Positions 15,838 through 50,948 of a stretch of 50,948 nt of DNA are shown in pieces. A program made the position numbers and the translations under genes. The notes under the pieces are model-generated. The model saw nothing but the letters and a program-made list of their open reading frames with translations. It did no database searches and was not told where the DNA came from. How positions within the stretch are numbered: the first letter of the stretch is position 1; the number at the start of each line of letters is the position of its first letter. The stretch is from an uncultured Gammaproteobacteria bacterium (lineage in GTDB: Bacteria; Patescibacteriota; Microgenomatia; Levybacterales; UBA12049), in the NCBI GenBank assembly GCA_964491185.1, contig CAZBFH010000003.1:1-50948 (forward strand), given 5' to 3'.

Positions 15838-15866
15838 TTTAGTTTAAAAAATACTACTGTTAGCTT

Positions 15867-16382: not shown

Positions 16383-16383
16383 C

Positions 16384-16548: not shown

Positions 16549-16607
16549 TAATTATATTAACTAACTTTCTAATAACTTTGTCAAGCGGAAATTATATAAT
16601 AGGTCTT

Positions 16608-17414: not shown

Positions 17415-17426
17415 CCCAAACCGTTT

Positions 17427-20374: not shown

Positions 20375-20711
20375 TTCTTTAAAAAAAGATCGTTTAATTT
20401 TTAGACTTTATATTGCAACATTTATTTTAATTTCTATTACTGTAGTTTATATTTTCCTAAGCTTAAGCAAACTCCCTCCATTAATTCCTATTTTTAATCA
20501 AATGCCTTGGGGAGAAGAAAGATTAAGCTCTACATTAGGAATTTTTATTCCGTCTATTATCACCTCTGCCATATTTTTCGTAAACATAATTTTATCAGCA
20601 GCTAGCTATTCTGCATCTCCTCTAATTTCTAGGCTTATCGCAATTACAAGTTTCCTGACTTCTCTTTTAACTTTTCTTTTTGTCGTTCGCACAATTCAAT
20701 TAATAATATAA
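20358..20711 (+). CDS. small 3-4 TM membrane protein, unknown function
   Basis: 117 aa and hydrophobic throughout. It overlaps the upstream gene by 17 nt and abuts the downstream gene. Confidence 0.45.
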   Translation: MKKYFNSLKKDRLIFRLYIATFILISITVVYIFLSLSKLPPLIPIFNQMPWGEERLSSTLGIFIPSIITSAIFFVNIILSAASYSASPLISRLIAITSFLTSLLTFLFVVRTIQLII

Positions 20712-25422: not shown

Positions 25423-27361
<1,939 letters not shown>

Positions 27362-27374
27362 AAATAAAAATAAA

Positions 27375-27401
27375 ATATCAGTCAGATATTTTGTCTGCTA
27401 A
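27375..27401 (-). promoter_or_regulatory. degenerate CIRCE-like operator upstream of groES
   Basis: The + strand reads ATATCAGTC-AGATATTTT-GTCTGCTAA. The GTCTGCTAA half-site is identical to the one upstream of hrcA. The other half matches 6 of 9 positions of the expected complement. Confidence 0.6.
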
Positions 27402-27511: not shown

Positions 27512-28690
27512 TTGCCAAGTATAGGTCTAAGTAAACCAACATTCTCAAAAAAGAAACTCCTTTTACTAGGATTTTTACTAGTGGTACTTCTTGTAATTCC
27601 AGTTACAGTATTTTTAGTCCAGCAACAGCAAAACCTCCAGAGTAATGCAAATCCTAATACCACTCTTTCTTTTGTACCTCCAGACAAAACAGCATCAGTG
27701 GGAGAAAAGGTAGATTTTGATGTTTGGATTTCTCCCGGAAATAACCAGGTTAATTTCGTAAAGCTTGTTATAAAATTTGATGCGTTAAAACTCTCCACTC
27801 AGAAAGATTATTTCGTATTAAATCCAGCTTCAAATTTATCAATCATTGAAGGACCGATAGTTGGTGCTGACGGAGATACGATTTCAGTAATTCTTTCGGT
27901 AGAAAACGATCCAACTAAAGTAATTAGGGCAGATACTAAAATTGGAACAATTAGTTTTGATACCTTAGATGTTTCTGATGTTCCAACACAGATTTCGTTC
28001 GATAATCAGCAGGTTCAAATTCGCTCAATTAATGGAGCCAATCAAGATGCATTTAACGAAAATGTGTTCCTAAATGGAACTCCTGCTAATCTTACAATTC
28101 AAGAAGGCGCAGACGTAACACCCGATCCAAGTGTCACTCTCACTCCTACAGTAACTGGTGCATTAACTCCAACCATTACTGCAGCAGCAACATTCACCCC
28201 AAATCCAACTTCTACCAATTCAGGCGAAGGCGCTGCGCCTTCCACTAACCAAGCTCCAGTTTGCGAAAGTCTTATAACTGATAGAAGCACTGATGGAACA
28301 GCACCTTTGTCTATAACTTTCACAGCTACAGGAAATGACACTGATGGAACAATAAGCAAAGTTTCGTTTAGCTTTGGAGACGGAACAGTTGAGGATGTAA
28401 CTACAGGCGGAGGAATTGGAACAGATACAGTAAATGTTCAGAAATCCTTTACATACAATAATGCGAATAGCTTTACTGCCTCAGCTCTTATGACAGATGA
28501 TAATGGGGGCGTAAGTAGCGACAGTACCTCTTGCGCAGTGACAGTTACCGTATCAGATGGAGACGGATCAACAGTTGACAGTGGCGGAGCTACAGTAGCA
28601 CCAACTGGACCTACGGAAACGATCTTTGGAATCGGTGCAATTGGTGGAATATTATTCTTAGTTGGAGCTCTCTTCTTCTTCGCTCTATAA
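27512..28690 (+). CDS. secreted/anchored surface protein: cohesin-like N-domain, T/P/S-rich linker, PKD-like domain, C-terminal hydrophobic anchor
   Basis: 392 aa with a TTG start and a signal/TM helix. VGEKVDFDVWIS...VNFVKLVIKFD resembles cohesin-type beta-sandwiches. ITFTATGNDTDGTISKVSFSFGDGT is a PKD-domain signature. The C-terminus is VAPTGPTE followed by a 20-aa hydrophobic helix. Confidence 0.6.
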   Translation: MPSIGLSKPTFSKKKLLLLGFLLVVLLVIPVTVFLVQQQQNLQSNANPNTTLSFVPPDKTASVGEKVDFDVWISPGNNQVNFVKLVIKFDALKLSTQKDYFVLNPASNLSIIEGPIVGADGDTISVILSVENDPTKVIRADTKIGTISFDTLDVSDVPTQISFDNQQVQIRSINGANQDAFNENVFLNGTPANLTIQEGADVTPDPSVTLTPTVTGALTPTITAAATFTPNPTSTNSGEGAAPSTNQAPVCESLITDRSTDGTAPLSITFTATGNDTDGTISKVSFSFGDGTVEDVTTGGGIGTDTVNVQKSFTYNNANSFTASALMTDDNGGVSSDSTSCAVTVTVSDGDGSTVDSGGATVAPTGPTETIFGIGAIGGILFLVGALFFFAL

Positions 28691-30927: not shown

Positions 30928-32640
30928 TTATTGACTAGCCTTCACGTCAATAATTTTTTCACTTTTATCTACTATTTCTTTATAGCCACTTATCCTTCTA
31001 AACATATATAAGAATGTTTCCGCTTCTTTTACATTTAGAAGCCATGTTAAAAATAGATAAATTGAAAGCCCTGCAATACTTGAAATTCCCGTGAGAGCAA
31101 TTAGGTTAATTGTCTTGGTGGTATCAAAAACTAATTGATCTAAAAGTTTTATGGGAATATATAACGCAAAACCCATAAATATTACAGACAAAAATATTTT
31201 TAACTGAGGTAACCAAAAAGTTTTTAAATTAAAAATCTTAATTCTTCTGTTTAAGATATAAAGAAGAATTGAAAGATTTATTAATCCTCCAATTGAAGTT
31301 GCAAATGCAATTCCCTCAACCCCAGACGGAATTATTTTAAATCTTTCATATGTCTCTAGGGAGTTTGCAAAATTCGTATTCCAATACGTAACAAAAAAGA
31401 AACTTAAAGCGAGCATTACCACCGTAGAAAAAGCTCCAACAATTAAAGGACTTTTTGTATCGTGTAATGCATAAAAGGCACGGGAAACTAAATAAATTAA
31501 AGCCTGCGCGAAAATTGCGAACGCAAAAAACGCTAATGTTCTTCCAGTTAAAACGGTTGCTTCCCAATCAAATCTTGCAGCTCCAAAAATAAGTCTGACA
31601 ATTGGAATACGAAGTACTATAAATAGTACAGATACCGGGAGAACTAAATAAAGCATTTGATTAAAACTTGTTAGAAAAGTTGTTCTAAAAATATCTAGCC
31701 TATCTTTCTCTCGAGATAAAACAGGAAATGCGGCCTGCGCAATTGATTGTCCAAACAAAACGATGGGTGCAAATGCTAATGTTTGAGCAAAATCTAAAAT
31801 AACATAATTTCTTCCAGCAGAAGGAAGAAATGAAATCAAGGAAACAGTAATAATAGTCCCTATTTGAAAAATAAACAGAGATAAGGTTCTTGGCCAGATA
31901 AGCTTTATTACTTCTTTTACTCCAGCTGTTTCTAGGGAAAGCGTCGGATGAAACGAAAAATGCACTTTTCTAATTAAAGGAATTTGAAAAAGTGCATATG
32001 CTAGTGCTCCAAAAATAACTCCAATTGCAGGTGCATAAATTCCAATCTTATCCGAGAATAATAGAATTCCTATAATTATTCCTAAATTATAAAGTGCAGC
32101 AGCAATTCCAGGAATAAAAAAATGATTATGCGATTGAAGAATTGCAGAAAAAAATGTAGCTACTAAAAAAATTATTTGTCCAAAAATAATTATCCTCATG
32201 AGGTTTGTCATTAGTGTCATCTGATGCGGTGGATATCCTGAACCTAAATTAAAAAGCTGGAGAAAAACTGGCGCAAAAATAAATAGAATTACTGAAACTA
32301 CACCAAAGAACGCAAATCCTAACAGCATTAGCGTAGACGCCATCTTATTCGCTTCTTCTTCTCGTCCTTTATGCAAGAGATTGGCGAATACTGGAATAAA
32401 TGCTGAAGACAAAGCGCCGGCAATAATTAATTGAAACAGAAAATCAGGAAGCTTTGAAGAGACCAAATAAACTCCTAATGTATCCGACGCTCCAAAAATT
32501 CCCGCCAATAAACGCTGCCTAAAAAGGCCTAACACTTGAGAAAAAATAACAGTTGCCATTAAAACCAAAGCAGCTGAAAGGATGTTTGTTTGTTTTTTTA
32601 AAAGAAGAGAAAGACCTTTTTGGAAAAAATGTAAAGGCAT
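30928..32640 (-). CDS. murJ: lipid II flippase MurJ (MviN family)
   Basis: 570 aa with about 14 TM helices. The N-terminal segment ...SQVLGLFRQRLLAGIFGAS...LPDFLFQL...GALSSAFIPVF is typical of MurJ. Confidence 0.85.
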   Translation of the reverse strand: MPLHFFQKGLSLLLKKQTNILSAALVLMATVIFSQVLGLFRQRLLAGIFGASDTLGVYLVSSKLPDFLFQLIIAGALSSAFIPVFANLLHKGREEEANKMASTLMLLGFAFFGVVSVILFIFAPVFLQLFNLGSGYPPHQMTLMTNLMRIIIFGQIIFLVATFFSAILQSHNHFFIPGIAAALYNLGIIIGILLFSDKIGIYAPAIGVIFGALAYALFQIPLIRKVHFSFHPTLSLETAGVKEVIKLIWPRTLSLFIFQIGTIITVSLISFLPSAGRNYVILDFAQTLAFAPIVLFGQSIAQAAFPVLSREKDRLDIFRTTFLTSFNQMLYLVLPVSVLFIVLRIPIVRLIFGAARFDWEATVLTGRTLAFFAFAIFAQALIYLVSRAFYALHDTKSPLIVGAFSTVVMLALSFFFVTYWNTNFANSLETYERFKIIPSGVEGIAFATSIGGLINLSILLYILNRRIKIFNLKTFWLPQLKIFLSVIFMGFALYIPIKLLDQLVFDTTKTINLIALTGISSIAGLSIYLFLTWLLNVKEAETFLYMFRRISGYKEIVDKSEKIIDVKASQ

Positions 32641-32657: not shown

Positions 32658-32686
32658 TTGCGAATATCAGTATATCATGCTAAAAT
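32658..32686 (+). promoter_or_regulatory. sigma70-like promoter of rpsT, positioned for a leaderless or near-leaderless mRNA
   Basis: TTGCGA (32658-32663), a 17-nt spacer, then TAAAAT (32681-32686). Only 6 nt (GCGTGC) separate the -10 element from the ATG at 32693. Confidence 0.55.
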
Positions 32687-32692
32687 GCGTGC

Positions 32693-32968
32693 ATGCCAGT
32701 AACAAAACAGGCCAGAAAAAAACTTAGACAGGACATAAAAAGAGAAAAAAAGAACAGAGATTTAAAATCAAAATTCAAAAAAACTCTTAAAGATACTAGA
32801 ACTAGTCCTACAGCAAAAAAACTTTCAGAAGCCGCAAAGGTGATTGATAAGGCTGCAAAGAAAAATGTAATACATAAAAATAAAGCTGCTAGACTTAAGT
32901 CTAGACTTGCTAAATTATCAGGCTCAAAAGCCACCAACAAGCCAACCCCAGAAAAAAAGAAAAAATAG
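32693..32968 (+). CDS. rpsT: 30S ribosomal protein bS20
   Basis: 91 aa and highly basic. The N-terminal K.ARK...Q..KR...N pattern and overall composition are typical of S20. Confidence 0.9.
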   Translation: MPVTKQARKKLRQDIKREKKNRDLKSKFKKTLKDTRTSPTAKKLSEAAKVIDKAAKKNVIHKNKAARLKSRLAKLSGSKATNKPTPEKKKK

Positions 32969-33027
32969 TCTCAGTTAACCTCATTTTACTTTACAAAATA
33001 TTAAAAAACCCATAGACTTAAAATGGC

Positions 33028-33567
33028 ATGCAATCTTCTGCCTCTATCAATCTAATCAAGAGTAAATCTAACGTTATCGATGATATCCTGAGATGGGCTT
33101 TGAGCGTTGGCAGACTTCTCATAATCCTAACTGAAATAGTGGCTTTCTCCACTTTTATATATAGATTCACTCTCGACAGAACCTTAATTGATTTACACGA
33201 CAACATAAGAGATAAGCAAGCAATCGTTGCAAGCCTTAAAGACAGAGAATTAACTTATCGAAATCTCCAGGGTAGATTAAATGATGCTGCTCAGATCACA
33301 ACCAGTGGAAATAAAAATGTAAAGATTTTAAACGACTTGATAGAAGCGACTCCACCTGACATTACCTATAATTCATTTGAAATTGGTGAAAATATAGTAT
33401 CGATTGATTCAAATATTCAATCTATCTCTTCGCTAACAAATTTCCTTGCAATCATAAGAGACTATCCAGAAACTAGCTCTGTAACAATTGACAGAATCGA
33501 TAATCAATCACTTACAAATTCCGTAAATGTCTTGATAACAATCAAACTAAAGGAGGCGAACCCATGA
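33028..33567 (+). CDS. PilN-like type IV pilus assembly (alignment complex) protein
   Basis: 179 aa. It has a short N-terminal INL motif (SINLIKSK), one TM helix, a coiled-coil segment and a C-terminal ferredoxin-like region, which is the PilN architecture. Confidence 0.5.
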   Translation: MQSSASINLIKSKSNVIDDILRWALSVGRLLIILTEIVAFSTFIYRFTLDRTLIDLHDNIRDKQAIVASLKDRELTYRNLQGRLNDAAQITTSGNKNVKILNDLIEATPPDITYNSFEIGENIVSIDSNIQSISSLTNFLAIIRDYPETSSVTIDRIDNQSLTNSVNVLITIKLKEANP

Positions 33568-34163
33568 AGAAAGTATTTAAAGGGATAAAATACGAAAAAT
33601 ATTATAAAGATATTCTTCCTTATCTAAAGAAACAAAAAAATCAGGAATATTTCATGGCTATCCTAACGCTAGGAGCAATCATATTTTTTGCTCTTTTTGC
33701 AATTAATCCTACAATTTCAACAATTGCAAAACTAAGAAAAGAAGTTCAAGATAGCAAGTTTGTAGATAAAGCACTTGACGAAAAAATTAATAACCTATCA
33801 TCCCTTATCACTGAGTATTCCGTAATCCAAAAAGATTTGCCTTTTGTTCTAGATGCAATTCCTAAGAATCCTCAAGCACCAACTCTTGTTGGACAAATTC
33901 AAACTATCGCTCAAAACTCAAATGTCGTTATTGAAGACCTTGATATCTCAGAAGTAGGGCTTACCAATAAAGACGCATCAACAAGTGCTAAATTTAGCTT
34001 TAGCTTAACTGGAACCTCAACCTATGAGAATATTAAAGTGTTCGTAGATGATTTAATCACCATGCAAAGAATAGTTTCACTGGAATCAGTTACATTGACC
34101 AAGAATTCTGATTCAGAGAGTATTCAGCTTGATTTAAAGGGATCAGCCTATTACAAAGATTAA
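33564..34163 (+). CDS. PilO-like type IV pilus assembly protein
   Basis: 199 aa. It has one TM helix, a coiled coil (KLRKEVQDSKFVDKALDEKINNL) and then an alpha/beta domain. It overlaps the PilN-like gene by 4 nt. Confidence 0.45.
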   Translation: MKKVFKGIKYEKYYKDILPYLKKQKNQEYFMAILTLGAIIFFALFAINPTISTIAKLRKEVQDSKFVDKALDEKINNLSSLITEYSVIQKDLPFVLDAIPKNPQAPTLVGQIQTIAQNSNVVIEDLDISEVGLTNKDASTSAKFSFSLTGTSTYENIKVFVDDLITMQRIVSLESVTLTKNSDSESIQLDLKGSAYYKD

Positions 34164-34481
34164 ATGAAACAAAAAGATTTATTAATATTGCTAGTACCCA
34201 TGTTTTTAGTTACGATCCTTTGGGTAATATTTAACATTTACCACAACTATGTGACCTCTACTATCGTTGACCCATTAACCGTGCAAATAGTCCCAATCGA
34301 TGGAAAATTTAACAAGACTTCACTTGAGAGCATAAAAGACAGAAAGAGATTGGAGCCCCTATTTACAGCTCCTTTAATCGATGAGGAAGTCTCCCCAGCT
34401 CTTTCCCCATCTCCTACCCCTACGATTCAAATAACACAAAGCGCAAGTCCTTCCGCTTCGGAAGTTATAAACAATCCGTAA
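34164..34481 (+). CDS. small single-pass membrane protein with S/P/T-rich tail
   Basis: 105 aa. An N-terminal TM helix is followed by a C-terminal SPALSPSPTPT...SASPSAS tail. It abuts the upstream gene with no gap. Confidence 0.45.
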   Translation: MKQKDLLILLVPMFLVTILWVIFNIYHNYVTSTIVDPLTVQIVPIDGKFNKTSLESIKDRKRLEPLFTAPLIDEEVSPALSPSPTPTIQITQSASPSASEVINNP

Positions 34482-34483
34482 CT

Positions 34484-35809
34484 ATGAACAACCTATGGAG
34501 CAAGAAAATCCCAACCCTAATAGGACTAATATTAATTACAATCGGAACTGTTATAACCACTTTTTTGGTCAGAGGAGATACAATTTTTCAAATTAGAGCA
34601 AATCCCAGCGAAGATCCAAAAAATATAAAAATTACCAATGTATCCGAAGAAGCATTTACCATCACCTACATAACAGACGATAAAGTAGTAGGATCTGTTA
34701 ATTACGGCGTTGATCCAAAAAATCTAGACGGGATTTCTCTAGATGACAGAGACCAGTTGTCGCAAAAAATTAATAAATACAACTCCCACTCCATTACAGT
34801 AAGAAATTTAGATCCAAACACTAAATATTATTTTAGTATTACATCTGGATCTAAAAAATATTTAGATACAGATGTTGAATTTGAAGCTACCACAAAAGGA
34901 GAAGTCTCAAGCAGTCCATCCACACAAATTCCAATCAGTGGAAAAGTTATTTTACCTGATGGAACATCACCAAATGATGGACTTGTGTATTTAAAAATTA
35001 ATGATGCGCAACTAACCTCAACACTTTTAAAAGAAGGTGGCACATACACAATTCCTCTCAATACGCTTAGAAAGGCGGATGAGGATGAATATCTTGAAAT
35101 TAATGACAATACTATTATTAATATAGATATTTTCTCTAGCGGATTATTCTCTTCTGTAAGTGTAACTCCAAATGAGATTAGCCCTGTTCCTTTAGTGACT
35201 ATTTCTGGAAGCTATAATTTTTCGGATTCAGTCGATAAGAGAAATGAAGCAGTAGCTCAATCCGAAGGCTTCCCTTCTTTTGGAAATATTTCCAAAATTA
35301 AAGACGATCCAAAAATTCTTACTCCATCATCCAATGAAACACTCAATGAATCTCAACCGACATTTGAAGGAACTGCGGAACCAAATGAAACGGTTGAAAT
35401 TGAAATTCACTCTAATGAAAATATAAAAACTCAAGTAGTGGCTGATGAAAATGGCAGCTGGGAATATACTCCTTCAGAAAATCTCTCTCCCGGAAATCAT
35501 ACAATTACAATCATCACAAAAAATAAAGATGGGATCTTAAAAACAATTACTAGAAATTTTATAGTTTATGCAGATGGCGGAATTTCCCCAACCATTACTC
35601 AACAACCCTCAGCAACCAGCCCTACATCTACACCAACTCAAACTCCAACTCATACTCCAACGCCATCAATTATTACAGCTATTAGCCCTGCTCCAACTCT
35701 TCCTCCAACAGGAAATTCTTCTGTTATAATTGCTAGTATTATTGGTTTCACTGCCGCAATCTCTGGAATAATAATATTTTTTCTATCTCGAGGAAAAAGT
35801 TATATATGA
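34484..35809 (+). CDS. LPXTG-type (LPPTG) sortase-anchored surface protein with FN3-like and Ig-like domains
   Basis: 441 aa with an N-terminal signal/TM helix. The FN3-like block runs ITNVSEEAFTITYIT...HSITVRNLDPNTKYYFSITS, and the Ig-like block runs ILTPSSNETL..PTFEGTAEPNETVEIEI...NGSWEYTP..LSPGNHTITI. A T/P/S-rich linker precedes LPPTG (nt 35699-35713), a 24-residue hydrophobic segment and an SRGK tail. Confidence 0.75.
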   Translation: MNNLWSKKIPTLIGLILITIGTVITTFLVRGDTIFQIRANPSEDPKNIKITNVSEEAFTITYITDDKVVGSVNYGVDPKNLDGISLDDRDQLSQKINKYNSHSITVRNLDPNTKYYFSITSGSKKYLDTDVEFEATTKGEVSSSPSTQIPISGKVILPDGTSPNDGLVYLKINDAQLTSTLLKEGGTYTIPLNTLRKADEDEYLEINDNTIINIDIFSSGLFSSVSVTPNEISPVPLVTISGSYNFSDSVDKRNEAVAQSEGFPSFGNISKIKDDPKILTPSSNETLNESQPTFEGTAEPNETVEIEIHSNENIKTQVVADENGSWEYTPSENLSPGNHTITIITKNKDGILKTITRNFIVYADGGISPTITQQPSATSPTSTPTQTPTHTPTPSIITAISPAPTLPPTGNSSVIIASIIGFTAAISGIIIFFLSRGKSYI

Positions 35810-37074
35810 AAATTGGAATTATTGGCGCTGGATTCACGGGACTCTCAGCAGCATACTATTTATTAAAAGAGGGACACGACGTTACAGTTTTTGAAAAAGA
35901 TGAAGTTCCTGGTGGTCTCGCTCTTGGATTTAAAGAAAAAGTCTGGAACTGGACACTTGAAAAGCACTATCACCACTGGTTTACAAACGATAAAAGTGTT
36001 CTGGATTTGGCGAAAGAAATAAATCACGATGTCCTCATAAAAAGACCTATAACTTCTGTATTCTTAGATGATGGGAAAATTTACCAGCTCGATTCGCCAA
36101 TTGCGGTATTAAAATTTGCAAAACTATCAATCATTGAAAGAATCAGAATGGCTGCAGTTCTTGGACTGTTTTTCAAATATAATCCCCTTTGGAAACCTCT
36201 TGAAAGAATAAACGCTGAACCATTTCTTAAATCTTCCATGGGAAAGAAAACATATGAACTTATTTGGGAACCTCAGCTATTCAGTAAGTTTGGAAAATAC
36301 AAAAATGACGTATCTTTAGCATGGTTTTGGGCGAGAGTTCACAAAAGAACTACAAAACTCGCCTATCCTAAAGGTGGATTTTTGGATTTCGCTAACCATC
36401 TAGTAGATGAGATTGAGAAAAAAGGAGGAAAAGTACTACTTAAATCAGGAGTCGAGAAAATTGAAAGCAACGAAAAGGTAATTATAAAATCTGATGGTAA
36501 AAAGTATGAATTCGATAAAGTGATAGTTACTCTTCCGTCTTTCTATTTCTCAAAAATTGCAGATCTTCCAGAAAGCTATTTAAATAAAATGGCAAATTTA
36601 AAAGGGCTTGGCGCAATCAATCTAGTTTTAAGACTCAAAGAACCTTTCTTTAAAGATTCAACCTATTGGCTTAGTGTTTGCGATAAACAAGCTCCAATCC
36701 TAGCAGTTGTTGAACATACAAATTTCATGGATAAGAAAAATTATAACAATGAGAGCCTTGTTTATTTAGGAAACTATTTGCCCTCAGATCATCCTTATTT
36801 TTCTGCAAATAAAGAGGATATATTAAAAAAGTATGATCCATTTCTAAAAAAATTAAACCCTAACTACAAGAAGAGCTTAATTGACTTTGAGGCATTTAAA
36901 GCTCCTTTCGCTCAACCAATAATTCCAGTCAATTATTCAAAAATGATTCCACCAATTGAAACCCCATTGGAAAATGTGTACTTAGCAAATATTCAACAGG
37001 TATACCCTTGGGATAGAGGAACAAACTACGCTGTTGAACTCGGAAAAAAAGTAGCAGATCTAATAAGCAAATAA
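35806..37074 (+). CDS. FAD/NAD(P)-binding oxidoreductase (amine oxidase / protoporphyrinogen oxidase-like superfamily)
   Basis: 422 aa. It starts with the N-terminal dinucleotide-binding motif MKIGIIGAGFTGLSAAYYL...V.VFEK....GGLA. It overlaps the LPPTG-protein gene by 4 nt. Confidence 0.7.
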   Translation: MKIGIIGAGFTGLSAAYYLLKEGHDVTVFEKDEVPGGLALGFKEKVWNWTLEKHYHHWFTNDKSVLDLAKEINHDVLIKRPITSVFLDDGKIYQLDSPIAVLKFAKLSIIERIRMAAVLGLFFKYNPLWKPLERINAEPFLKSSMGKKTYELIWEPQLFSKFGKYKNDVSLAWFWARVHKRTTKLAYPKGGFLDFANHLVDEIEKKGGKVLLKSGVEKIESNEKVIIKSDGKKYEFDKVIVTLPSFYFSKIADLPESYLNKMANLKGLGAINLVLRLKEPFFKDSTYWLSVCDKQAPILAVVEHTNFMDKKNYNNESLVYLGNYLPSDHPYFSANKEDILKKYDPFLKKLNPNYKKSLIDFEAFKAPFAQPIIPVNYSKMIPPIETPLENVYLANIQQVYPWDRGTNYAVELGKKVADLISK

Positions 37075-38711
37075 TGAGATTAAAAAATCTTATTAATAAT
37101 TACACTCCTGAAATCATAGCACTCGTAATTGGATCTGCTTTCGGGTTTTTATTATTTTTTTCGACCTTCTATGAAAAAAATGACAAAATTTTTATTGCCT
37201 CTAAAGCTTGGAGCGACTTTGCGAGCCATATCCCATTAATAAGATCTTTTTCTTTAGGCTCCAACTTTCCTCCGCAGTTTCCTTTATTTCCTGGAGAACC
37301 AATAAAATATCATTTTATTTTCTACTACCTTGTTGGACTTTTTGAAAAAGCTGGTCTTAATATCGGATTGGCATTAAACATTTTCTCATTTTTAGGCTTT
37401 GTTTTGTTAATATTCATGATCTATTTCTTTGCGAAAGAAATTTTTAAATCAAAATCGGTAGGAATTTTAAGTATTATTTTTTTTCTTTTTAACTCTTCAC
37501 TTTCATATGTATATTTTTTCAAAAAATATCCACTCTCAATTAATTCATTTAATCAAATAATAAAAAATACAGATTTTCTTTCTTTCGCCCCATATGGTGA
37601 CGGAATTATTTCAGCTTTTTGGAATCTAAACATCTACACAAATCAAAGACACTTAGCTCTATCGCTTGGATTATCAATTCTTATTATTTATTTTGCGATA
37701 AAACCACTTATTAAAAAAGGGGCCCAAAAAATATGGATACACCCATTACTGGGAATTATCTTAGGCCTCAGTTTTTATCTTCATACAGCAGTATTCTTAA
37801 TGACATTAATAATTTTTGTAGCATTCTTAGTTCAATTAAAAGGGCTTAGAAAAAATATTTTTATTTTACTTGTATTTGCAGCTTTATTCTCTTTGCCTCA
37901 ATATCTTTACCTAAGTTCGTCAACAGGCTTCTCGCCACATATTCAATTTGGATATTTAATTTCGGGAGATTTAAATTTAATAAATATTTTTGAGTTTTGG
38001 ATTTACAATTTAGGAATAAGTATAATTCTAATTCCTCTTGGTTTCTTTTTTGCAAACAAACTTCAAAAGAAAATATTCTTAGCATTTTTTATGCTTTTTA
38101 TTGTAGGGAATACGATTCAATTTTCTCCTGAAATCGCAGCAAATCATAAATTCTTTAATTTATTTGTTATTTGTGGAAATATGTTTTCTGCCCTAGCAAT
38201 AATTAGTATTTTTAAAAAAAGATCCATTTCGTTAATTGTACCCGTATTAATTTTATTTATGATACTTGGAGGAATAATAGATTTATTTCCAATCATTAAC
38301 GATAGAAAATACGAATTAGATGATTATAAAATCAACAATGATGCAAATTGGATTTTAGAAAATACGGCAAATGATTCAGTCTTCTTAAACACTATATTTC
38401 TTTATAATCCAGCTTCCCTTGCTGGTAGGAAAATATTTCTTGGATGGCCATATTTTGCATGGTCGCAAGGATATGACACTTATAAAAGAGGGGATCTTGT
38501 AAGGAAAATGCTTGGCTCCACAAATAAATCGGAGGCGTGTAGTCTATTCTTGGAAAATAAAATTGACTGGGTAGAAATAAAAATACAAGATCCACCCGAT
38601 CCCAACATTCCACCGATATCAAGTCTTTACGAAGAAGAATTTACCAAAGCATATGAGAATATAAACAACAATTATTCTATCTATAGTGTACATAAGAACT
38701 GCGGATTATAA
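37074..38711 (+). CDS. large polytopic membrane protein, GT-C-like (family unassigned)
   Basis: 545 aa with about 12 TM helices and a C-terminal soluble domain. The early loop reads WSDFASHIPLIRSF..G.NFPPQFPLFPGEPIKYHF. It shares 1 nt with the upstream stop (TAATG). Confidence 0.5.
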   Translation: MRLKNLINNYTPEIIALVIGSAFGFLLFFSTFYEKNDKIFIASKAWSDFASHIPLIRSFSLGSNFPPQFPLFPGEPIKYHFIFYYLVGLFEKAGLNIGLALNIFSFLGFVLLIFMIYFFAKEIFKSKSVGILSIIFFLFNSSLSYVYFFKKYPLSINSFNQIIKNTDFLSFAPYGDGIISAFWNLNIYTNQRHLALSLGLSILIIYFAIKPLIKKGAQKIWIHPLLGIILGLSFYLHTAVFLMTLIIFVAFLVQLKGLRKNIFILLVFAALFSLPQYLYLSSSTGFSPHIQFGYLISGDLNLINIFEFWIYNLGISIILIPLGFFFANKLQKKIFLAFFMLFIVGNTIQFSPEIAANHKFFNLFVICGNMFSALAIISIFKKRSISLIVPVLILFMILGGIIDLFPIINDRKYELDDYKINNDANWILENTANDSVFLNTIFLYNPASLAGRKIFLGWPYFAWSQGYDTYKRGDLVRKMLGSTNKSEACSLFLENKIDWVEIKIQDPPDPNIPPISSLYEEEFTKAYENINNNYSIYSVHKNCGL

Positions 38712-39971
38712 ATGAAAGAAGTAAAAAATTTCTTGATAAATATTTTAGGAAGTAAATTATTAATAACAGGATTTTTAATATATTTTCTTTTCAATCTTTC
38801 AGCTCTAAAAACAAATTGGTTAGATTTTTTCTTCTTCGGAAGTTCAATTCACTACTGCTGTCAGGGAATTGACTTCTATGGAATACCAAATGGCGTATAT
38901 TCGTTTATAAATGGCGGCAGTTTAAGCGGAGCAAATTTGCCCCATGCTTTAAAACCTTACTCAGTAAATACCCTAAGTAACCCGAACGACTATCATCCGA
39001 TAACTGCATTAATTCTTGGGAGCTTAATAATCATCTTTGATTCAAACAAGTCGTTTTACTACTGGATGATTGCAAAAATATTAATCACCATCCCGATTAT
39101 TTATTATTTTTATAAAAACTTTTCCGATAATAAATTAATAAATCTCGCAATATTTATTTTCCTAGCAAATTTTTCTCAATACAATGAAATTCGAATTTCT
39201 CAATATCAATTTATCTTCAACACTTCTCTTCTCCTGCTTCTTATCTCTTTGGTAAAGAAAAAGGATAATTTAGAAAGAGGCATTTTATTTTTCTTAACAT
39301 TAATTGCCAAACCAATTAGCCTTTTATTTCTACCTGTTTTAGTGATCAAGAAGTATTATTTCCCAGCTGTAATAGGAATTAGTATTTTTTTGATTTCAAC
39401 AATAACATTCAACATCTTAAATATAGGAAATTATTTTACAGATAATCTTATTTATCATTTACTAAATCCTAAGGAAGGAAAATCGATCGACTACATGTCT
39501 CTAGATGCTTTTTTAAGATACACATTTAACATTTCTCCGGATTTCATAAAGTATTTTAAATATATTGTGTTAATTTCAATCTATCTACTGGCATTCAATA
39601 AGAAAACCCACATCTTAACCTTAATTTTTCTGTTAACTTCATATTTCTTATTTTTTTATGACCATCTTTTTCAATATCATTTTAGTGTCTTAGGCGCTAT
39701 CTTACCAATTTGTCTTTTAATACTCCCAAATTTCCAAACAAGATTTGCAAAAATTCTTATCCTAATAACTTGCCTTCCAACAACTTTCTTTATTCTAAGA
39801 ATCATAAATCTTGAATTCGTAATGGATCCTATATATGGACCAAACCCTACCATGAAAGGCTGGCAAATCGTATCCTTCTTTCAATTATTGCCACTCACAA
39901 TTCTTTCAGTAATAATATTTATTAAAGAGATTCCGGTTATAAATTTAAAAAAACTAACGAAGATTAAATAA
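38712..39971 (+). CDS. polytopic membrane protein, GT-C-like (family unassigned)
   Basis: 419 aa with about 10-12 TM helices. It abuts the upstream gene with no gap. Confidence 0.45.
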   Translation: MKEVKNFLINILGSKLLITGFLIYFLFNLSALKTNWLDFFFFGSSIHYCCQGIDFYGIPNGVYSFINGGSLSGANLPHALKPYSVNTLSNPNDYHPITALILGSLIIIFDSNKSFYYWMIAKILITIPIIYYFYKNFSDNKLINLAIFIFLANFSQYNEIRISQYQFIFNTSLLLLLISLVKKKDNLERGILFFLTLIAKPISLLFLPVLVIKKYYFPAVIGISIFLISTITFNILNIGNYFTDNLIYHLLNPKEGKSIDYMSLDAFLRYTFNISPDFIKYFKYIVLISIYLLAFNKKTHILTLIFLLTSYFLFFYDHLFQYHFSVLGAILPICLLILPNFQTRFAKILILITCLPTTFFILRIINLEFVMDPIYGPNPTMKGWQIVSFFQLLPLTILSVIIFIKEIPVINLKKLTKIK

Positions 39972-41347
39972 TGAAAATAATAAAAAAAGATACATTCCTA
40001 ATAATATCGATAATTCTGTTTTTATCCTTAACTCTTAAATTTATAACTACACTCCCCTATATGGATGGAAACATAGATTTCATACAAACTCTTGATTTCT
40101 ATAAAGGAGGATTAAGTCAGTATTTCTCAAACTGGAATACGGTTCATCCACCATTAAAACTTATACTAACCATGCCCCTATACCTATTCTTCGGCATATC
40201 ACCAATAAGCTACTCTGCATTAGGAATTATTTTTGGAATCATTGGAATAGTCTCTATTTATTTTTTAACGAAAGACTTGTTTGGGAAACTTTCAGGAAAT
40301 TTAGCCGCCATTTTTTTTTCAATCTATCCTCTTTTTATTTCGAACTCGATATTTTCGATGAGAGATGCAATCCTAACATCTCTAATTCTCGCTTCTCTTC
40401 TTTTCTACAGAAGAAAACAATTTTTGTTTTATGCGCTAGCGTCTTCAGTTGCAGTTATTACCAAAGAAACCGCTCTTCTATTACCATTAATCATCATATT
40501 TATTGAATTTATATATTTTATTAAATTAAGAAAAATTAATATTATGCATATACTAAACTATGCTGCACTATTAATTCCCTTAGGGGTTTACTACATTTGG
40601 AAACTTGTATTAAGCTCTTATGGAAAAAGCTCATGGGGAGAATGGATATTTACTGAAACAGAAAATAAAGGTGCAATTTTTACAATCATAAATAATCTCG
40701 TTACTTTTCAATTTATGAATCCATATTCCGAGTGGCATTGGAAACAGGCAATTTTTCTTAATTTTAACTGGCTATATATTTTAATTATTTCTTCAGCAAT
40801 TGTTCTTTATATATTTAATTTTAAAAAAATAAAATTTCATAAAAATTCAGATAACGTAAAAGTTTTATTAGCAATAATTTTATTTGTTTTAGCATACTTC
40901 TTAACGGTTCTTTCACTCCAAACCTATACTATCCCTAGATATGCACTCCCGCTAATTCCGTTTCTATTAATAGGATTATCAAAAAGCATCACTGCGCTAA
41001 AAAACGACTATGCCATAAAGACTACTATCGTATTTGTATTTGCGATCATGATGATTTCTCTTTTTTATTCTGTAGACCCGGTTGCAAAAAGAATATGGGG
41101 GAATATTAATATTTTTAACAATAATATTTATGCCTTAAACGATCATATGGCAGGAAACGATGGTATAACATATAATATACAATATCTTTTGATCGCAAAT
41201 GAAAGATCAAAAATGATAAAAGACGCAAAGGAAGATGCAATTGTCAGTGGATATTGCAGATGGATTTTTCCAGATCCAAATAATGAAGTAAAAATGTTAA
41301 AAGAACTTAAAAATAACCCAGCTATATATTGCATTCAAATTAGGTAA
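39971..41347 (+). CDS. GT-C fold glycosyltransferase, family 39/83-like (PMT_2 / ArnT-like)
   Basis: 458 aa. The first loop has YMDGNIDF, followed by a HPPL motif. About 11 TM helices precede a C-terminal soluble domain. It shares 1 nt with the upstream stop. Confidence 0.55.
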   Translation: MKIIKKDTFLIISIILFLSLTLKFITTLPYMDGNIDFIQTLDFYKGGLSQYFSNWNTVHPPLKLILTMPLYLFFGISPISYSALGIIFGIIGIVSIYFLTKDLFGKLSGNLAAIFFSIYPLFISNSIFSMRDAILTSLILASLLFYRRKQFLFYALASSVAVITKETALLLPLIIIFIEFIYFIKLRKINIMHILNYAALLIPLGVYYIWKLVLSSYGKSSWGEWIFTETENKGAIFTIINNLVTFQFMNPYSEWHWKQAIFLNFNWLYILIISSAIVLYIFNFKKIKFHKNSDNVKVLLAIILFVLAYFLTVLSLQTYTIPRYALPLIPFLLIGLSKSITALKNDYAIKTTIVFVFAIMMISLFYSVDPVAKRIWGNINIFNNNIYALNDHMAGNDGITYNIQYLLIANERSKMIKDAKEDAIVSGYCRWIFPDPNNEVKMLKELKNNPAIYCIQIR

Positions 41348-41349
41348 AG

Positions 41350-43479
41350 ATGCCATTACTCGATCTTTTATATATTTCTAAATGGTGGATAGTTTTCTTC
41401 TTTTTAGGAATTTCGTTCCTACCATTAACCTCAAGAATATTTAATTCTTTTATTGATAGGGGATATATTTTTTCAAAAGTTCTAGGAATCGTATTTGTTT
41501 CTTATTCAATTTATGTACTTGGCACATTTCATTTACTAAAATTTACAACTTTAAACATTTTTATCGTTTGGTTTCTATGTGTCTCTATTTCCTTATTTTT
41601 TGTTAGAAAAGAAAGTTTTAATTTTAAAAAAAACCTAAAGGTATTTTTATTTGAAGAAATAATTTTTCTAATTGCTCTAGTCATCTGGTCCTATGTAAGA
41701 GCTCATCAACCAGACATTCATGATCTTGAGAAATTCATGGACTATGGATTTATTAATTCTATTTTAAGATCTGAATATTTTCCACCTCGCGACATGTGGC
41801 TCACGCCATTATCAATAAATTATTATTATTTTGGTCATCTTTTTACAGCAGTTGTCACAAAAATATCCCACATTCCAGCATTTATTACCTTCAATTTAAT
41901 GATTGCCACGATTTTTGCATTCACCTTTAGTATTTCCTTTTCAATTGGAATTAATCTAATTCAACAAATAAAAAAATTTTCCCTTAAAAAAACATTTGTC
42001 TTAGGTTTTATTTTTGCGTATATTGTTTCCCTTTCTGGAAATCTACAAACAATTTATTCACTTTTTAAAAACTATAATGGTGAATCCCCTGTTCCATTCT
42101 GGAACCTAGCTCTTTCAATTTTTACATTTCCAAATGCATACTGGTATCCAAATGCTACAAGATTTATTTATCATACAATTCATGAATTCCCGTCCTACTC
42201 ATTCGTAGTTGCAGACTTACATGGACATGTTCTAGACATTCCAATCGTAATGACTCTAATCGCTTTTGCGTTAATTATGTTCTTAGAAAACAAAATAAAA
42301 ATTCCTTTAGTAATCTTAGTATCTTTCTTTATCTCAATTGCATATATGACAAATGCATGGGATGGGCTTATCTATATTGGTCTATTTATTAATATTCTTT
42401 TTATCCTAGAATTTATAAACACGAAAAATAAAAACTTTATAAAAAGATTTGCTAGTTCATTATTAAAATCTATTAAATGGATTCCGATAATTGGTGCCTT
42501 ATTTTTCATTTTTACTTTTGTTTTTAGCCGAAATTTTGCTCCTTTTGCTTCTGAAATTGGCTTAAACTGCGCGCCAAAACTCTTACTCAACATGAAAAGC
42601 TTTGGACCCTTCGTTTTTGAAACTGGTCAGTGTCAACATTCCCCATTCTGGCAATTAGGAATACTCTATGGATTCTTCGTTTTTATGATATTAGGTTTTT
42701 TTGTTTTTATACGAAATAAAAAAATATCCAGAGCGGATATTTTCGTTGGGGTTATTTCTATTTTTTCGATCCTTTTATTAATCGCTCCTGAGATAATCTA
42801 TCTAAAAGATATTTACACTGGGCATTTTAGAGCAAACACCATGTTTAAGCTCGCCTATCAGGCATTTATAATGCTTTCTTTTTCGAGTTTATATACTTTT
42901 TTTAGAGTTATTTTTTCTTTAAAATCTGATTTTAAATCTCGTTTATCAAAAATTTCAGCCGTAGTATTTCTAGTCATTGGATTAATATTAATCTTTATCA
43001 TCTCGATTTACCCTTACTTTGCTGTGCCCTCAGGATATGGAGATTTAAAAATATATAAAGGTCTTAATGGCATAAATTATCTCAAAACCATTAAACCATC
43101 CGATCATGATGCAATAATTTGGATCAACCAGAATATAAAGGGACAACCCGTAGTTCTTGAGGCACAAGGCGATTCATATACCGATTTTGCGAGAATTTCA
43201 GCAAACACAGGTTTACCTACAGTTCTTGGCTGGACTGTCCACGAATGGCTATGGAGAGGATCGTACGATGTTCCATCAGCAAGATTTTCCGATATTCAAA
43301 ATCTCTATGAATCACCTGATAAAAATTTAACAAAACAAATAATTAATAAATATAATATTTCCTATGTTTATATTGGGGAAATGGAAAAAGAAAAATATAA
43401 AATATCTGAGGAAAAATTTTCCTACTTAGGATTCATAATTTACGCCAGGGGAACAACAAGAATTTATAAAATTCGTTAG
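41350..43479 (+). CDS. DUF2298 / YYY-motif polytopic membrane protein (GT-C-like)
   Basis: 709 aa. It carries the INYYYFGHLF motif characteristic of the Chlor_Arch_YYY / DUF2298 family. Many TM helices precede a C-terminal soluble domain. Confidence 0.65.
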   Translation: MPLLDLLYISKWWIVFFFLGISFLPLTSRIFNSFIDRGYIFSKVLGIVFVSYSIYVLGTFHLLKFTTLNIFIVWFLCVSISLFFVRKESFNFKKNLKVFLFEEIIFLIALVIWSYVRAHQPDIHDLEKFMDYGFINSILRSEYFPPRDMWLTPLSINYYYFGHLFTAVVTKISHIPAFITFNLMIATIFAFTFSISFSIGINLIQQIKKFSLKKTFVLGFIFAYIVSLSGNLQTIYSLFKNYNGESPVPFWNLALSIFTFPNAYWYPNATRFIYHTIHEFPSYSFVVADLHGHVLDIPIVMTLIAFALIMFLENKIKIPLVILVSFFISIAYMTNAWDGLIYIGLFINILFILEFINTKNKNFIKRFASSLLKSIKWIPIIGALFFIFTFVFSRNFAPFASEIGLNCAPKLLLNMKSFGPFVFETGQCQHSPFWQLGILYGFFVFMILGFFVFIRNKKISRADIFVGVISIFSILLLIAPEIIYLKDIYTGHFRANTMFKLAYQAFIMLSFSSLYTFFRVIFSLKSDFKSRLSKISAVVFLVIGLILIFIISIYPYFAVPSGYGDLKIYKGLNGINYLKTIKPSDHDAIIWINQNIKGQPVVLEAQGDSYTDFARISANTGLPTVLGWTVHEWLWRGSYDVPSARFSDIQNLYESPDKNLTKQIINKYNISYVYIGEMEKEKYKISEEKFSYLGFIIYARGTTRIYKIR

Positions 43480-44564
43480 GGAATTTGAGAAACAATACAT
43501 TCTTCCTGAGTTAATCGACATCTTATAAATTCATGTATCTCTGAATAATCTCTTTCTCCAATTCTTGGAACCAAAGTCCATTCAAAATTGTATTTTTCAC
43601 TTATTGGTGGATGGGTTAAGAGACCACCCCTATCATTCTCCTGATCACCATAATCTATAACAACACTTTGTAGTTTTGCTTTCTGGAATTTCTGTGCAAG
43701 TTTTATAAAGTCATCTAATTCATTGTCTTTAATATCTGTATCAACACTTTGCCCAACTGCATTATATAAACCAACAATTTTCGTAGGATTAAAAATTATT
43801 TGAAGAGAAAATATTTTATCCATAAATGCTTTTATTACTTTTTCTTGCCTTTGTGATCTTGCAAAGTCAGTCCCCTCTGAGCCTTTTGCGTGGCGAGATC
43901 TAACAAATTTTAAAGCAGTTTCTCCATCCATGTGATTCATACCTTTATCGAAATGCAAATGCTCATATCTACATGGAAAAGCTTCGAGCTGAGAAGAAAC
44001 TGTTGCTAATTTATCCAAATCTTCTTCTTTGTTGTCACACGGATCATCCTCACGCCCTGTAATTGGGTACTCATAATCATCAAAAGTCTTATCAACATTA
44101 ATATCTAACCCTCCTACTAAATCCACTGCTTTTACAAATCCTGAGAAATCTATTACAACTCCATAATCTATATTTTGTCCAGTTATTTTACTTGCAACAG
44201 TTTTTGCTAAGACTAATCCTCCACCTTCTTTTTTTAATTCTCCTTTTGCATATGCGGTATTAATTTTTCCATCAACATCAAATGACCAAACGTCTCGCGG
44301 AAGAGAAACCAAAGTTACTTTTGATTCTTTAATATTTAAACTTGCAAAAATTAAAGTATCCGATAAATTAGGTCCTTCGTGTTTTCCTCCACCAATTCCA
44401 AGAAGTAAAATGTTAATTGTGTGCTGATCAGTTTTTTTAAGATCTATATTTTTATTAAAAATTACCTGGAAAAGAAGTGGAGATAAATTACCACCTTTAA
44501 TAATGACTTCAATACCAAGTACCACTATAAAGAAAAGAGAAATTAAGAGTTTTTTATACAGCAT
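43476..44564 (-). CDS. LytR-CpsA-Psr (LCP) family glycopolymer-to-peptidoglycan transferase
   Basis: 362 aa with an N-terminal TM helix. The block INILLLGIGGG....LSDTLIFASLN.....VTLVSLPRD is the LCP signature. Confidence 0.8.
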   Translation of the reverse strand: MLYKKLLISLFFIVVLGIEVIIKGGNLSPLLFQVIFNKNIDLKKTDQHTINILLLGIGGGKHEGPNLSDTLIFASLNIKESKVTLVSLPRDVWSFDVDGKINTAYAKGELKKEGGGLVLAKTVASKITGQNIDYGVVIDFSGFVKAVDLVGGLDINVDKTFDDYEYPITGREDDPCDNKEEDLDKLATVSSQLEAFPCRYEHLHFDKGMNHMDGETALKFVRSRHAKGSEGTDFARSQRQEKVIKAFMDKIFSLQIIFNPTKIVGLYNAVGQSVDTDIKDNELDDFIKLAQKFQKAKLQSVVIDYGDQENDRGGLLTHPPISEKYNFEWTLVPRIGERDYSEIHEFIRCRLTQEECIVSQIP

Positions 44565-48596: not shown

Positions 48597-48884
48597 TTAA
48601 ATTTTGAGGATTACTTTGGCTTTTATTTGCTCTATCTTAACGGATCCAAAACGACGACTGTCAAAACTGTCCGATTTATTATCTCCTACCAAAAAGTATT
48701 TTCCTTTTTCCATCTTATCAATTCTCTTTATATAAAATCTGTTGAATTTTTCAAAGACTACCACATCTCCTTTTTTGGGTTTTGCAAACACCAGGGGAAT
48801 TGAACTAACTAAAACACTATCTCCTTCTTTGTATGTGGGAGTCATGGAGTGTCCTGAGATTTTAAAACGAGAAAGGAGAAGCAT
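48597..48884 (-). CDS. sodX: minimal S26-family signal peptidase, likely nickel superoxide dismutase maturation protease
   Basis: 95 aa. It has the catalytic Ser motif SGHSM, the Lys motif YIKRI and the GDN...S.DSR box. It lies immediately downstream of sodN, sharing 1 nt with it. Confidence 0.7.
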   Translation of the reverse strand: MLLLSRFKISGHSMTPTYKEGDSVLVSSIPLVFAKPKKGDVVVFEKFNRFYIKRIDKMEKGKYFLVGDNKSDSFDSRRFGSVKIEQIKAKVILKI

Positions 48885-49360
48885 TAACCTTGTACCACTA
48901 TTCCGAGTCCTGTAGGATATGGAGCATTTACCCTGTGAGATTCTAGTTCCTTTGATTTATAAAATATTTCTGCAATCTGCATTATTTTTTCTAAAAGTTC
49001 TTTTGCCGAATCCATGTCAATTCCAGTTCGCACTTTTCCTCCTAGAGATTTAGAATCACTAAAAAGTTTTTCAAGCTCTGGATACTTAGAATAATCATTC
49101 TTGAAATAATCGTCAGCAAGAGTCGATAACTCATGCTCGAGTATGTTCGCGTGCTCTTCTTTAACATGAGTAACCCTGGCAATATCATGCTCAGCTTTTG
49201 TTTCATTGTCTCTTTTAATCTCTGTTAAAAATTGAGTCATTCTTATAATAGTATGCGCTGCAACTTGAGCTTGGTGAGGGTCATAAATTCCGCAAGGAAT
49301 ATCACAATGCGCAAATGCAGTTTTCTCAGGAAGTAAATTTAAGACTAAAGTAAGTTTCAT
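48884..49360 (-). CDS. sodN: nickel-containing superoxide dismutase precursor
   Basis: 158 aa. A leader ending in FA is followed by HCDIPCGIYDP, the Ni-hook motif (HCDLPCGVYDP in Streptomyces). Confidence 0.85.
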   Translation of the reverse strand: MKLTLVLNLLPEKTAFAHCDIPCGIYDPHQAQVAAHTIIRMTQFLTEIKRDNETKAEHDIARVTHVKEEHANILEHELSTLADDYFKNDYSKYPELEKLFSDSKSLGGKVRTGIDMDSAKELLEKIMQIAEIFYKSKELESHRVNAPYPTGLGIVVQG

Positions 49361-50873: not shown

Positions 50874-50945
50874 TCCGTGATAGCTCAATGGTAGAGCAAT
50901 TCGCTGTTAACGAAAAGGTTCTAGGTTCGAGTCCTAGTCACGGAG
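50874..50945 (+). tRNA. tRNA-Asn (anticodon GTT)
   Basis: The 72-nt cloverleaf was folded by hand. The acceptor stem TCCGTGA/TCACGGA, the D stem GCTC/GAGC and the T stem CTAGG/CCTAG are all perfect, and the T loop is TTCGAGT. The anticodon loop is CTGTTAA with GTT at positions 34-36. CCA is not encoded. Confidence 0.9.
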
Positions 50946-50948
50946 CAA

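Follow-up and report, generated by a model that had tools for sequence, protein, structure and literature searches.

A probable juxtaposition of two separately conserved envelope modules, a murJ-linked PilN/PilO cassette and a flavoprotein-associated GT-C glycosyltransferase module, in Levybacteria

Why should a run of nine closely packed genes in a candidate phyla radiation bacterium open with relatives of the pilus proteins PilN and PilO and close with four polytopic membrane proteins that resemble glycosyltransferases? The genes, g1 to g9, occupy positions 33028-43479 of a low-GC, ~97% coding metagenome contig, which was analyzed over its whole length of 50,948 bp (the window) and whose closest relatives are Candidatus Levybacteria genomes (Microgenomates, candidate phyla radiation; g5 is 92% identical in locus L001). 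Recomputation confirmed nine plus-strand open reading frames (ORFs), with products of 179, 199, 105, 441, 422, 545, 419, 458, and 709 aa (Table 1), that meet at junctions of -4, 0, +2, -4, -1, 0, -1, and +2 nt. The original prediction saw in them a dedicated module that builds and glycosylates a cell-surface appendage or an anchored adhesin. Having compared the locus with its counterparts in related genomes, we instead consider it rather probable that the unit is a lineage-limited juxtaposition of two separately conserved envelope modules, A (g1-g4) and B (g5-g9).

This reading stems from a set of 160 loci: 80 species-representative loci anchored on g5 and labeled with iterated local hidden Markov models (HMMs), and 80 further loci anchored on g2, recovered by a metagenome scan with a Blackburnbacteria-only g2 alignment, some of which exact look-ups place in Woesebacteria and Pacebacteria. 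In about 50 Levybacteria loci, the genes run in the order lepA (minus strand), murJ (minus), the ribosomal protein S20 gene (plus), g1, g2, g3, g4, g5, a variable set of GT-C paralogues, g9, the gene for a LytR-CpsA-Psr (LCP) enzyme (minus), TIM (minus), UvrD (plus), and FemAB (plus). The g1-g4 proteins are only 30-45% identical across these loci and yet retain the same order, which indicates that the arrangement is old. The expectation that the gene order would be conserved in related genomes, rather than being a chance adjacency in a single one, hence holds across Levybacteria.

Beyond that clade, the two halves of the unit have different companions. The g2-anchored loci typically present lepA (minus), the S20 gene (minus), murJ (plus), and then g1-g4 (e.g., L132:7629-13120 and L109:7700-12665), with murJ directly upstream of the cassette and on the same strand in 39 loci. 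In Woese-, Pace-, Blackburn-, and Levybacteria alike, g1-g4 always lie beside murJ, making module A a murJ-linked cassette conserved across Microgenomates. What follows g4 varies: among 35 loci, a Bac_transf gene and/or a large Wzy_C gene, sometimes with a GT1 gene, is found in ~13, g5 with GT-C genes in 6, and further secreted proteins in 7. Module B likewise recurs across Microgenomates. In Woese- and Amesbacteria, three to six PMT_2 genes precede g5 and g1-g4 are not in the vicinity, and Woesebacteria hold modules A and B at separate loci. From these gene orders, the fusion of A with B is limited to Levybacteria and a small number of further lineages. One Woesebacteria locus (L062:90-17218) is a single run of five PMT_2 paralogues, an EamA transporter, g5, four GT2 genes, a GT1 gene, an ALG10-like GT-C gene, and DUF2304; in a very small genome, a GT-C array of this size is unusual, and the GT2, GT1, EamA, and DUF2304 neighbors of this version of module B would fit a polyprenyl-phosphate-sugar pathway.

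Within the g5-anchored loci, the g1-g4-g5 order is kept in 47 of 71, and g4 and g5 still overlap by 4 nt in about half of the Levybacteria loci. The exact g6-g7-g8-g9 set is confined to the closest relatives, other g5 loci having instead two to four PMT_2-like genes, an SDR epimerase, a 184-aa protein, or a methyltransferase. In most Levybacteria (e.g., L009:14644-16232), g9 is preceded by genes for an NAD-dependent epimerase/dehydratase (345 aa) and a conserved, family-less protein of ~185 aa; both are missing from the window, where g6-g8 occupy their place. The boundary between the modules also admits foreign genes. An extra polytopic gene stands between g4 and g5 in L027, L035, and L043, and, on the opposite strand, in L040, while Blackburnbacteria have four to six genes inserted there, including those for a subtilase and for cohesin/dockerin proteins. 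The polytopic insert (L040:8114-9853; L035:7292-9043) codes for ~580 aa with 9-11 transmembrane (TM) helices and no Pfam match. Two of the Blackburnbacteria insertions (L073:3645-9687 and L058:2248-9975) comprise a dockerin-domain subtilase, cohesin-domain proteins, and extra g4-like proteins, and their domain content hints at a cohesin-dockerin surface assembly in a lineage of the candidate phyla radiation.

These observations bear on whether all nine genes constitute one dedicated machine for building and glycosylating an appendage or adhesin, with PilN and PilO scaffolding the GT-C enzymes around the LPPTG-bearing g4 protein. The eight consecutive tight junctions, the frequent retention of the g1-g4-g5 order and of the g4-g5 overlap, the presence in g3 and g4 of T/P/S-rich stretches of the kind modified by PMT enzymes, and the placement of different glycan enzymes after g4 in other lineages all speak for such a machine. 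However, A and B are found apart in Woesebacteria, insertions (even on the reverse strand) separate g4 from g5, the housekeeping flanks are just as syntenic as the unit itself, and the constant neighbor of the cassette is murJ rather than any glycosyltransferase. We therefore hold a single machine to be distinctly unlikely. Of the module originally proposed, the gene order within Levybacteria and the annotations of the parts stand; its unity is not established, given the separate halves in Woesebacteria, the inserted genes, and the constant partnership with murJ.

Of the two conserved envelope modules, A opens with g1 and g2. The g2 protein scores 54 bits against Pfam PilO (PF04350; cut-off 22), its profile finds the solved PilO structures 3jc8_Oa (E 5e-14) and 2rjz (E 6.5e-6), and NCBI names its relatives 'type 4a pilus biogenesis protein PilO'; by these matches, g2 can be identified as PilO. 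For g1, the connection runs through its family: a Woesebacteria orthologue (L132) scores 48 bits against PilN, above the cut-off, and the best solved match of the family profile is PilN of the Myxococcus pilus machine (3jc8_Na, E 4.6e-4). The g1 protein has the sequence SINL at residues 6-9 (INL at 7-9) followed by a single TM helix at ~20-38. Every g1 orthologue shares the N-terminal INL, and in Woese- and Pace-type sequences it takes the canonical PilM-binding form INLLPKDPF. The g1 family as a whole thus appears, on profile and motif evidence, to be PilN, and the reading of the pair as PilN- and PilO-like is upheld, for g2 by its score over the Pfam cut-off and for g1 by the orthologue score, the motif, and the profile match to solved PilN.

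Are g1 and g2 then simply the alignment proteins of an ordinary type IV pilus, with pilM, pilB, pilC, pilT, and the pilin genes located at other sites, g3 and g4 standing in the positions of PilP and PilQ, and module B making a wall glycopolymer for the LCP enzyme? The resemblance to the PilM-PilN-PilO(-PilP-PilQ) system is real: both proteins are bitopic and adjacent, in the order N then O; the PilM-binding INLLP is conserved in the g1 family; both profiles have the type IVa pilus machine as their best solved match; the public name of the g2 relatives is that of a type 4a protein; and the pair is succeeded by two more envelope proteins. Type IV pilus genes are, moreover, widespread in the candidate phyla radiation (PMC6744442), a search for g2 homologues, itself of limited sensitivity, yielded close Levybacteria orthologues alone, without a second PilO family, and the conserved adjacency of g9 with the LCP gene suits the glycopolymer part. 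On the other hand, published pilus loci of the candidate phyla radiation group pilM, pilN, and pilO together with pilB and pilC (PMC6744442, PMC12206443), whereas no pilM precedes the cassette and no pilB, pilC, pilT, or pilin gene, and no recognizable pilus ATPase or prepilin gene, occurs within 10 kb in any of the ~90 cassette-bearing loci. Likewise, none of the 2162 ORFs in the 160 loci, a purely local scope, has a T2SSE-type (PilB/PilT) Walker A motif or a class III prepilin signal. When every ORF of the window with 120 aa or more was scanned against Pfam, no match to PilM, PilB, PilC, PilT, or a sortase came up, in agreement with the original prediction's statement that PilM and the pilus ATPases are absent. 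In addition, neither g3 nor g4 is related to PilP or PilQ, and an ordinary pilus role leaves the tie to murJ unexplained. We judge this alternative somewhat unlikely. The sole pilin-like hint near any copy of the cassette is a 152-aa protein encoded between the S20 gene and murJ (L123:6988-7446), with a weak match to T2SSG (pseudopilin) of 21.6 bits.

The other two members of module A are a small protein and a surface protein. There is no Pfam or NCBIfam match for g3, but it is kept in 48 genome loci as well as in metagenome loci. The g4 protein starts with a TM helix (KKIPTLIGL), which is followed by an FN3-like domain, a Big_13 Ig domain, a T/P/S-rich stalk, LPPTG at residues 406-410 (nucleotides 35699-35713), a second TM helix (411-429), and the basic tail SRGKSYI. 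The architecture of an LPXTG signal is complete, and the domains and the position of the motif agree with the earlier description of an FN3/Ig protein ending in LPPTG; the score against the LPXTG model TIGR01167 is 15.8 bits, with a cut-off of 15.9. The Ig-like domains, the Pro/Thr-rich wall-spanning stalk, the LPPTG, the hydrophobic segment, and the basic tail make g4 resemble the sortase-anchored LPXTG proteins of monoderms, from which it differs in its conserved N-terminal TM anchor, in the drift of the motif and the conserved C-terminal helix among orthologues, and in the lack of a sortase gene in the window. Sortase has been reported in nearly all Microgenomates (PMC6744442). All lineages keep the N-terminal K(K/R)IPTLxGLG motif of g4, and the C-terminal motif drifts to P-x-[TASP]-G and LPxSGS. 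In Woese- and Pace-type sequences (L094-L159), (L/I)P.SGS is succeeded by a conserved helix, GG.FF...G.WS.W.A, and an acidic tail. Given these other signals and the conserved helix outside the close relatives, sortase is likely to cleave only the Levybacteria form of g4. Together with a PKD protein and a short unannotated ORF (27051-27401), g3 and g4 hold the four T/P/S-richest stretches of the window. A 392-aa protein (27512-28690) shows weak PKD-domain matches and a T/P-rich linker, and could be a further O-glycosylation substrate; a gene likened to it by size only, with ~2 TM helices, adjoins GroES/GroEL-sized genes in most Levybacteria loci.

Module B is dominated by proteins that we assign, with differing support, to the GT-C fold, whose enzymes take sugars from polyprenyl-phosphate donors and attach them to acceptors on the membrane's outer face. 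The g6 protein has ~10 TM helices and a C-terminal extracytoplasmic domain, lacks a Pfam match, and belongs to a family of which our search found 1589 relatives, all named 'hypothetical'. Its AlphaFold (AF2) model (pLDDT 88.5) has GT-C enzymes as all of its top 15 Foldseek matches in the PDB, namely DPY19, AglB, STT3, AftA, PglB, AftB, and Pmt4, the top ones at E 7e-8 to 7e-4. The model of g7 (pLDDT 91) best matches PimE (9dm5; TM-score 0.61/0.66), followed by PIG-M, PIG-U, ALG6, ALG9, and ALG12, and PF09594 is present in many of its relatives. On these predicted folds, g6 and g7 are GT-C enzymes. Comparison with hhalign joins g6 to g9 at 99.3% probability (E 2e-20) and to g8, in the N-terminal catalytic region, at 92.7%; g9 is accordingly assigned to the fold through its homology to g6. 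The assignment of g8 is supported at the family level, PMT_2 being matched by 61 of 72 sampled members of its HMM family and PMT by 26 of 72, while g8 itself has a Pfam match to PMT_2 only and none to the GT39 family PMT (PF02366). Acidic residues of the first extracytoplasmic loop are invariant in g6 (D48), g7 (D38 and D54), and g9 (E127, D131, and D148); D32, D36, and D42 are present in g8, whose 72-sequence alignment is too divergent to place them. The YYY of g9 comprises residues 158-160 (41821-41829), within NYYYFGH (157-163).

Four GT-C-like polytopic proteins, one of them PMT_2/ArnT-like (g8) and one carrying the DUF2298 YYY (g9), are accordingly what the first reading of the sequence had anticipated; the folds of g6 and g7 and the loop acids of g6, g7, and g9 do not contradict it. 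The models of g6 and g7 match the known enzymes (PimE/GT87, PMT/GT39, ArnT-like PMT_2, AftA/AftB, STT3/AglB/PglB, and DPY19) and nothing else significantly, and g8 and g9 join them through sequence-family and profile matches only. Unlike those enzymes, they do not lead to solved structures by sequence (searches with the g6 and g9 profiles gave nothing useful, and neither did one with the surface protein g4), g6 is without a Pfam family, and DUF2298 is uncharacterized. In Chloroflexi and Archaea, genes of the TIGR03662 (chlor_Arch_YYY) family are accompanied by PMT-like partners. The position of g9 beside PMT-like GT-C genes, and its 496-bit score to that family, recall those systems; the difference is that g6-g8 yield no TIGR03663-type match in an NCBIfam scan and that the constant partner here is a flavoprotein.

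This flavoprotein, g5, carries GIIGAGFTG near its N-terminus, and Pfam and NCBIfam (the latter through the uncharacterized family PRK07233) place it in the amine-oxidase superfamily, in keeping with the Rossmann-type FAD oxidoreductase expected from the sequence; its best solved match is an uncharacterized Pyrococcus flavoprotein. A GT-C-like gene is directly adjacent to g5 in 59 of 71 loci and lies within three genes of it in 66. By analogy with other members of the superfamily (phytoene desaturase and HpnE), g5 may modify the isoprenoid carrier or a lipid-linked sugar, and module B can be seen, tentatively, as a polyprenyl-phosphate-sugar-dependent glycosylation module deeply conserved with its flavoprotein. 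That g5 might act like DprE1, together with the SDR epimerase of other Levybacteria, is an idea that we leave as speculation, as g5 and DprE1 are not of the same flavoprotein family and the window has no SDR gene.

Putting the two modules side by side suggests the following scheme. PilN and PilO would form their usual heterodimeric membrane scaffold, the INL(LP) peptide of PilN docking PilM or a related actin-like ATPase whose gene would lie elsewhere in the genome; g3 and g4 would be the outward-facing, wall-proximal partners of the pair. By analogy with other GT-C enzymes, g6-g9 (two DUF2298-type, one PimE/GT87-like, and one PMT_2-like) would move sugars from polyprenyl-phosphate donors. As acceptors, the stalks of g4 and g3, rich in T/P/S, would be the most likely, and/or a wall glycopolymer that the adjacent LCP enzyme would then attach to peptidoglycan. 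Ser/Thr/Pro-rich linkers of proteins are O-glycosylated by actinobacterial PMT, and archaeal S-layer glycoproteins have a Thr-rich stalk before a C-terminal anchor. The g4 stalk, right before the C-terminal anchor and with PMT-type genes alongside, is a comparable candidate substrate; g6-g9 could instead build a lipoglycan or wall polymer.

A functional link between A and B, such as the glycosylation of the g4/g3 stalks or a shared wall-linked surface assembly with LCP, MurJ, and FemAB, is plausible because cassette A repeatedly neighbors different glycan enzymes, because g3 and g4 hold two of the four T/P/S-richest stretches of the window, and because the flanking genes (murJ, LCP, and FemAB) are all envelope genes. 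It is a link that we infer rather than observe, as phylogeny confounds the correlation between T/P content and gene neighborhood and as, outside the close relatives, g4 orthologues end in signals other than LPXTG, with a sequence-conserved helix.

Several observations weigh against our reading and against the link. The housekeeping flanks, from lepA to FemAB, are as syntenic across Levybacteria as the unit. Tight junctions are the norm in this genome: outside the unit, 14 of the 27 same-strand junctions in the window are also of 2 nt or less, including those of functionally unrelated pairs such as LCP-TIM (-11) and UvrD-FemAB (-4), so that tight coupling by itself is weak evidence for a shared function, even though eight successive tight junctions would still be unusual by chance (~0.52^8 = 0.005). 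In 9 of the 35 loci examined downstream of g4, GH18 and a class A penicillin-binding protein follow it in place of glycan enzymes. The score of g1 against Pfam PilN (PF05137) is 14 bits, with a cut-off of 22.8, and the PMT_2 score of g8 lies under the curated Pfam cut-off. Beyond the close relatives, the C-terminal signal of g4 orthologues is not LPXTG, and the sequence-conserved C-terminal TM helix of the Woese- and Pacebacteria forms is unusual for a cleaved sorting signal. The g4 stalks are richer in T/P beside GT-C genes, but the groups compared are clades, and we discount this correlation for that reason. The role of g5, finally, is pure inference.

Some of these points converge on the view that the modules have no functional link at all, their adjacency being synteny inherited in a compact genome and their co-transcription incidental. 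The ~97% coding density, the many tight junctions between unrelated genes, the synteny of the whole lepA-FemAB block, and the separation of the modules in Woesebacteria can all be explained in this way. Less easily explained are the survival of the adjacency at 30-45% identity of the g1-g4 proteins, the independent placement of cassette A beside other types of glycan-assembly genes in other lineages, and the envelope character of the flanking murJ, LCP, and FemAB. We thus regard the complete absence of a link as unlikely and favor the juxtaposition of two conserved envelope modules. The murJ-linked cassette of PilN, PilO, g3, and g4 might also be conceived as a non-pilus, envelope-spanning scaffold of Microgenomates, new to description and with no PilM next to it, that couples the export of lipid-linked precursors (MurJ, GT-C/Wzy_C, and penicillin-binding proteins) to the assembly or glycosylation of the wall-anchored surface protein, a proposal that we offer as quite improbable.

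As for expression, shuffled sequence contains at least as many promoter-like and terminator-like motifs as the unit does, and we place no weight on these motifs. The nine genes are probably one co-transcribed unit. The S20 gene and g1 are each preceded by a -10-like hexamer that ends 6-9 nt before the ATG, without a Shine-Dalgarno sequence (32658-32692 and 32990-33027; consensus matches only), which suggests that their mRNAs are leaderless or near-leaderless. The sole clear Shine-Dalgarno inside the unit is that of g2 (AAGGAGG). On the upstream side, the adjacency of rpsT with g1 is kept in Levy- and Blackburnbacteria. On the downstream side, the LCP gene runs toward g9 and shares 4 nt with its end, and the two remain adjacent across Levybacteria.

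Elsewhere in the window, a second envelope-glycan locus (14359-22727) encodes a DUF2079 (GT-C) protein, TatD, a weakly GT2-like protein of 497 aa, a PMT_2 protein (E 5e-10), a 117-aa ORF, a Glycos_transf_4 (WecA/MraY-like) protein, and a UbiA prenyltransferase, with a PEGA+SH3 protein after them; it could supply lipid-linked donors to g6-g9. A nickel superoxide dismutase gene lies at 48884-49360, and tRNA-Asn (GTT), at 50874-50946, is the sole RNA gene found in the window.

Table 1. Coordinates of the nine-gene unit and of its immediate neighbors in the window, with the matches on which each annotation is based
Feature	Position	Strand	Basis or remark
g1, PilN-family bitopic protein	33028..33567	+	Pfam PilN E 0.055; family-level evidence
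g2, PilO-family bitopic protein	33564..34163	+	Pfam PilO (PF04350) E 2.6e-14
g3, small bitopic protein with S/P/T-rich tail	34164..34481	+	Conserved cassette member
g4, FN3/Ig surface protein with LPPTG	34484..35809	+	Pfam Pur_ac_phosph_N/fn3 and Big_13
g5, FAD-dependent oxidoreductase, amine-oxidase/phytoene-desaturase superfamily, PRK07233 family	35806..37074	+	Pfam Amino_oxidase E 1e-26; NCBIfam PRK07233 E 7e-122
g6, predicted GT-C glycosyltransferase, distant DUF2298 paralogue	37074..38711	+	AF2 model; hhalign
g7, predicted GT-C glycosyltransferase, GT87/DUF2029 type (PimE-like)	38712..39971	+	Pfam GT87 E 2e-4
g8, putative divergent PMT_2-like GT-C glycosyltransferase	39971..41347	+	Pfam PMT_2 E 1.7e-4; NCBIfam AZOBR_p60025 E 1.7e-9
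g9, DUF2298/chlor_Arch_YYY membrane protein	41350..43479	+	Pfam DUF2298 E 1e-90; TIGR03662 496 bits, cut-off 300
Promoter-like TTTACA-17-TAGACT	32990..33018	+	Ends 9 nt before g1 ATG; consensus match only
murJ, lipid II flippase	30928..32640	-	Pfam MurJ E 4e-71; divergent from the unit in the window
rpsT, ribosomal protein S20	32693..32968	+	Pfam Ribosomal_S20p; 59 nt upstream of g1
LCP (LytR-CpsA-Psr) glycopolymer-to-wall ligase	43476..44564	-	Pfam LytR_cpsA_psr E 7e-32

All the components of the unit belong to or resemble known families, g2 being already named PilO in public annotation, and module A is its less ordinary part. Literature searches turned up neither this nine-gene arrangement nor a murJ-linked cassette without an adjacent pilM, an association of the flavoprotein with GT-C genes, or a GT-C assignment for the g6 family, in keeping with the original prediction, which knew of no system of this composition.

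Members of the candidate phyla radiation live attached to other cells and have genomes of ~1 Mb, much of which is devoted to the surface. To our knowledge, the biogenesis of their envelope is almost unknown. If the murJ-linked cassette is a pilus alignment complex, it would show how a pilus is organized at the wall of monoderm-like cells and nominate g3 and g4 as the missing wall-proximal parts; if it is not, it would represent a new, second use of the PilN/PilO scaffold in organisms with minimal genomes. Module B, for its part, gives a predicted fold, and hence a probable enzyme class, to the uncharacterized DUF2298 and to the large unnamed family of g6, and the flavoprotein that nearly always accompanies the GT-C arrays is a candidate for a new step in lipid-linked sugar metabolism.

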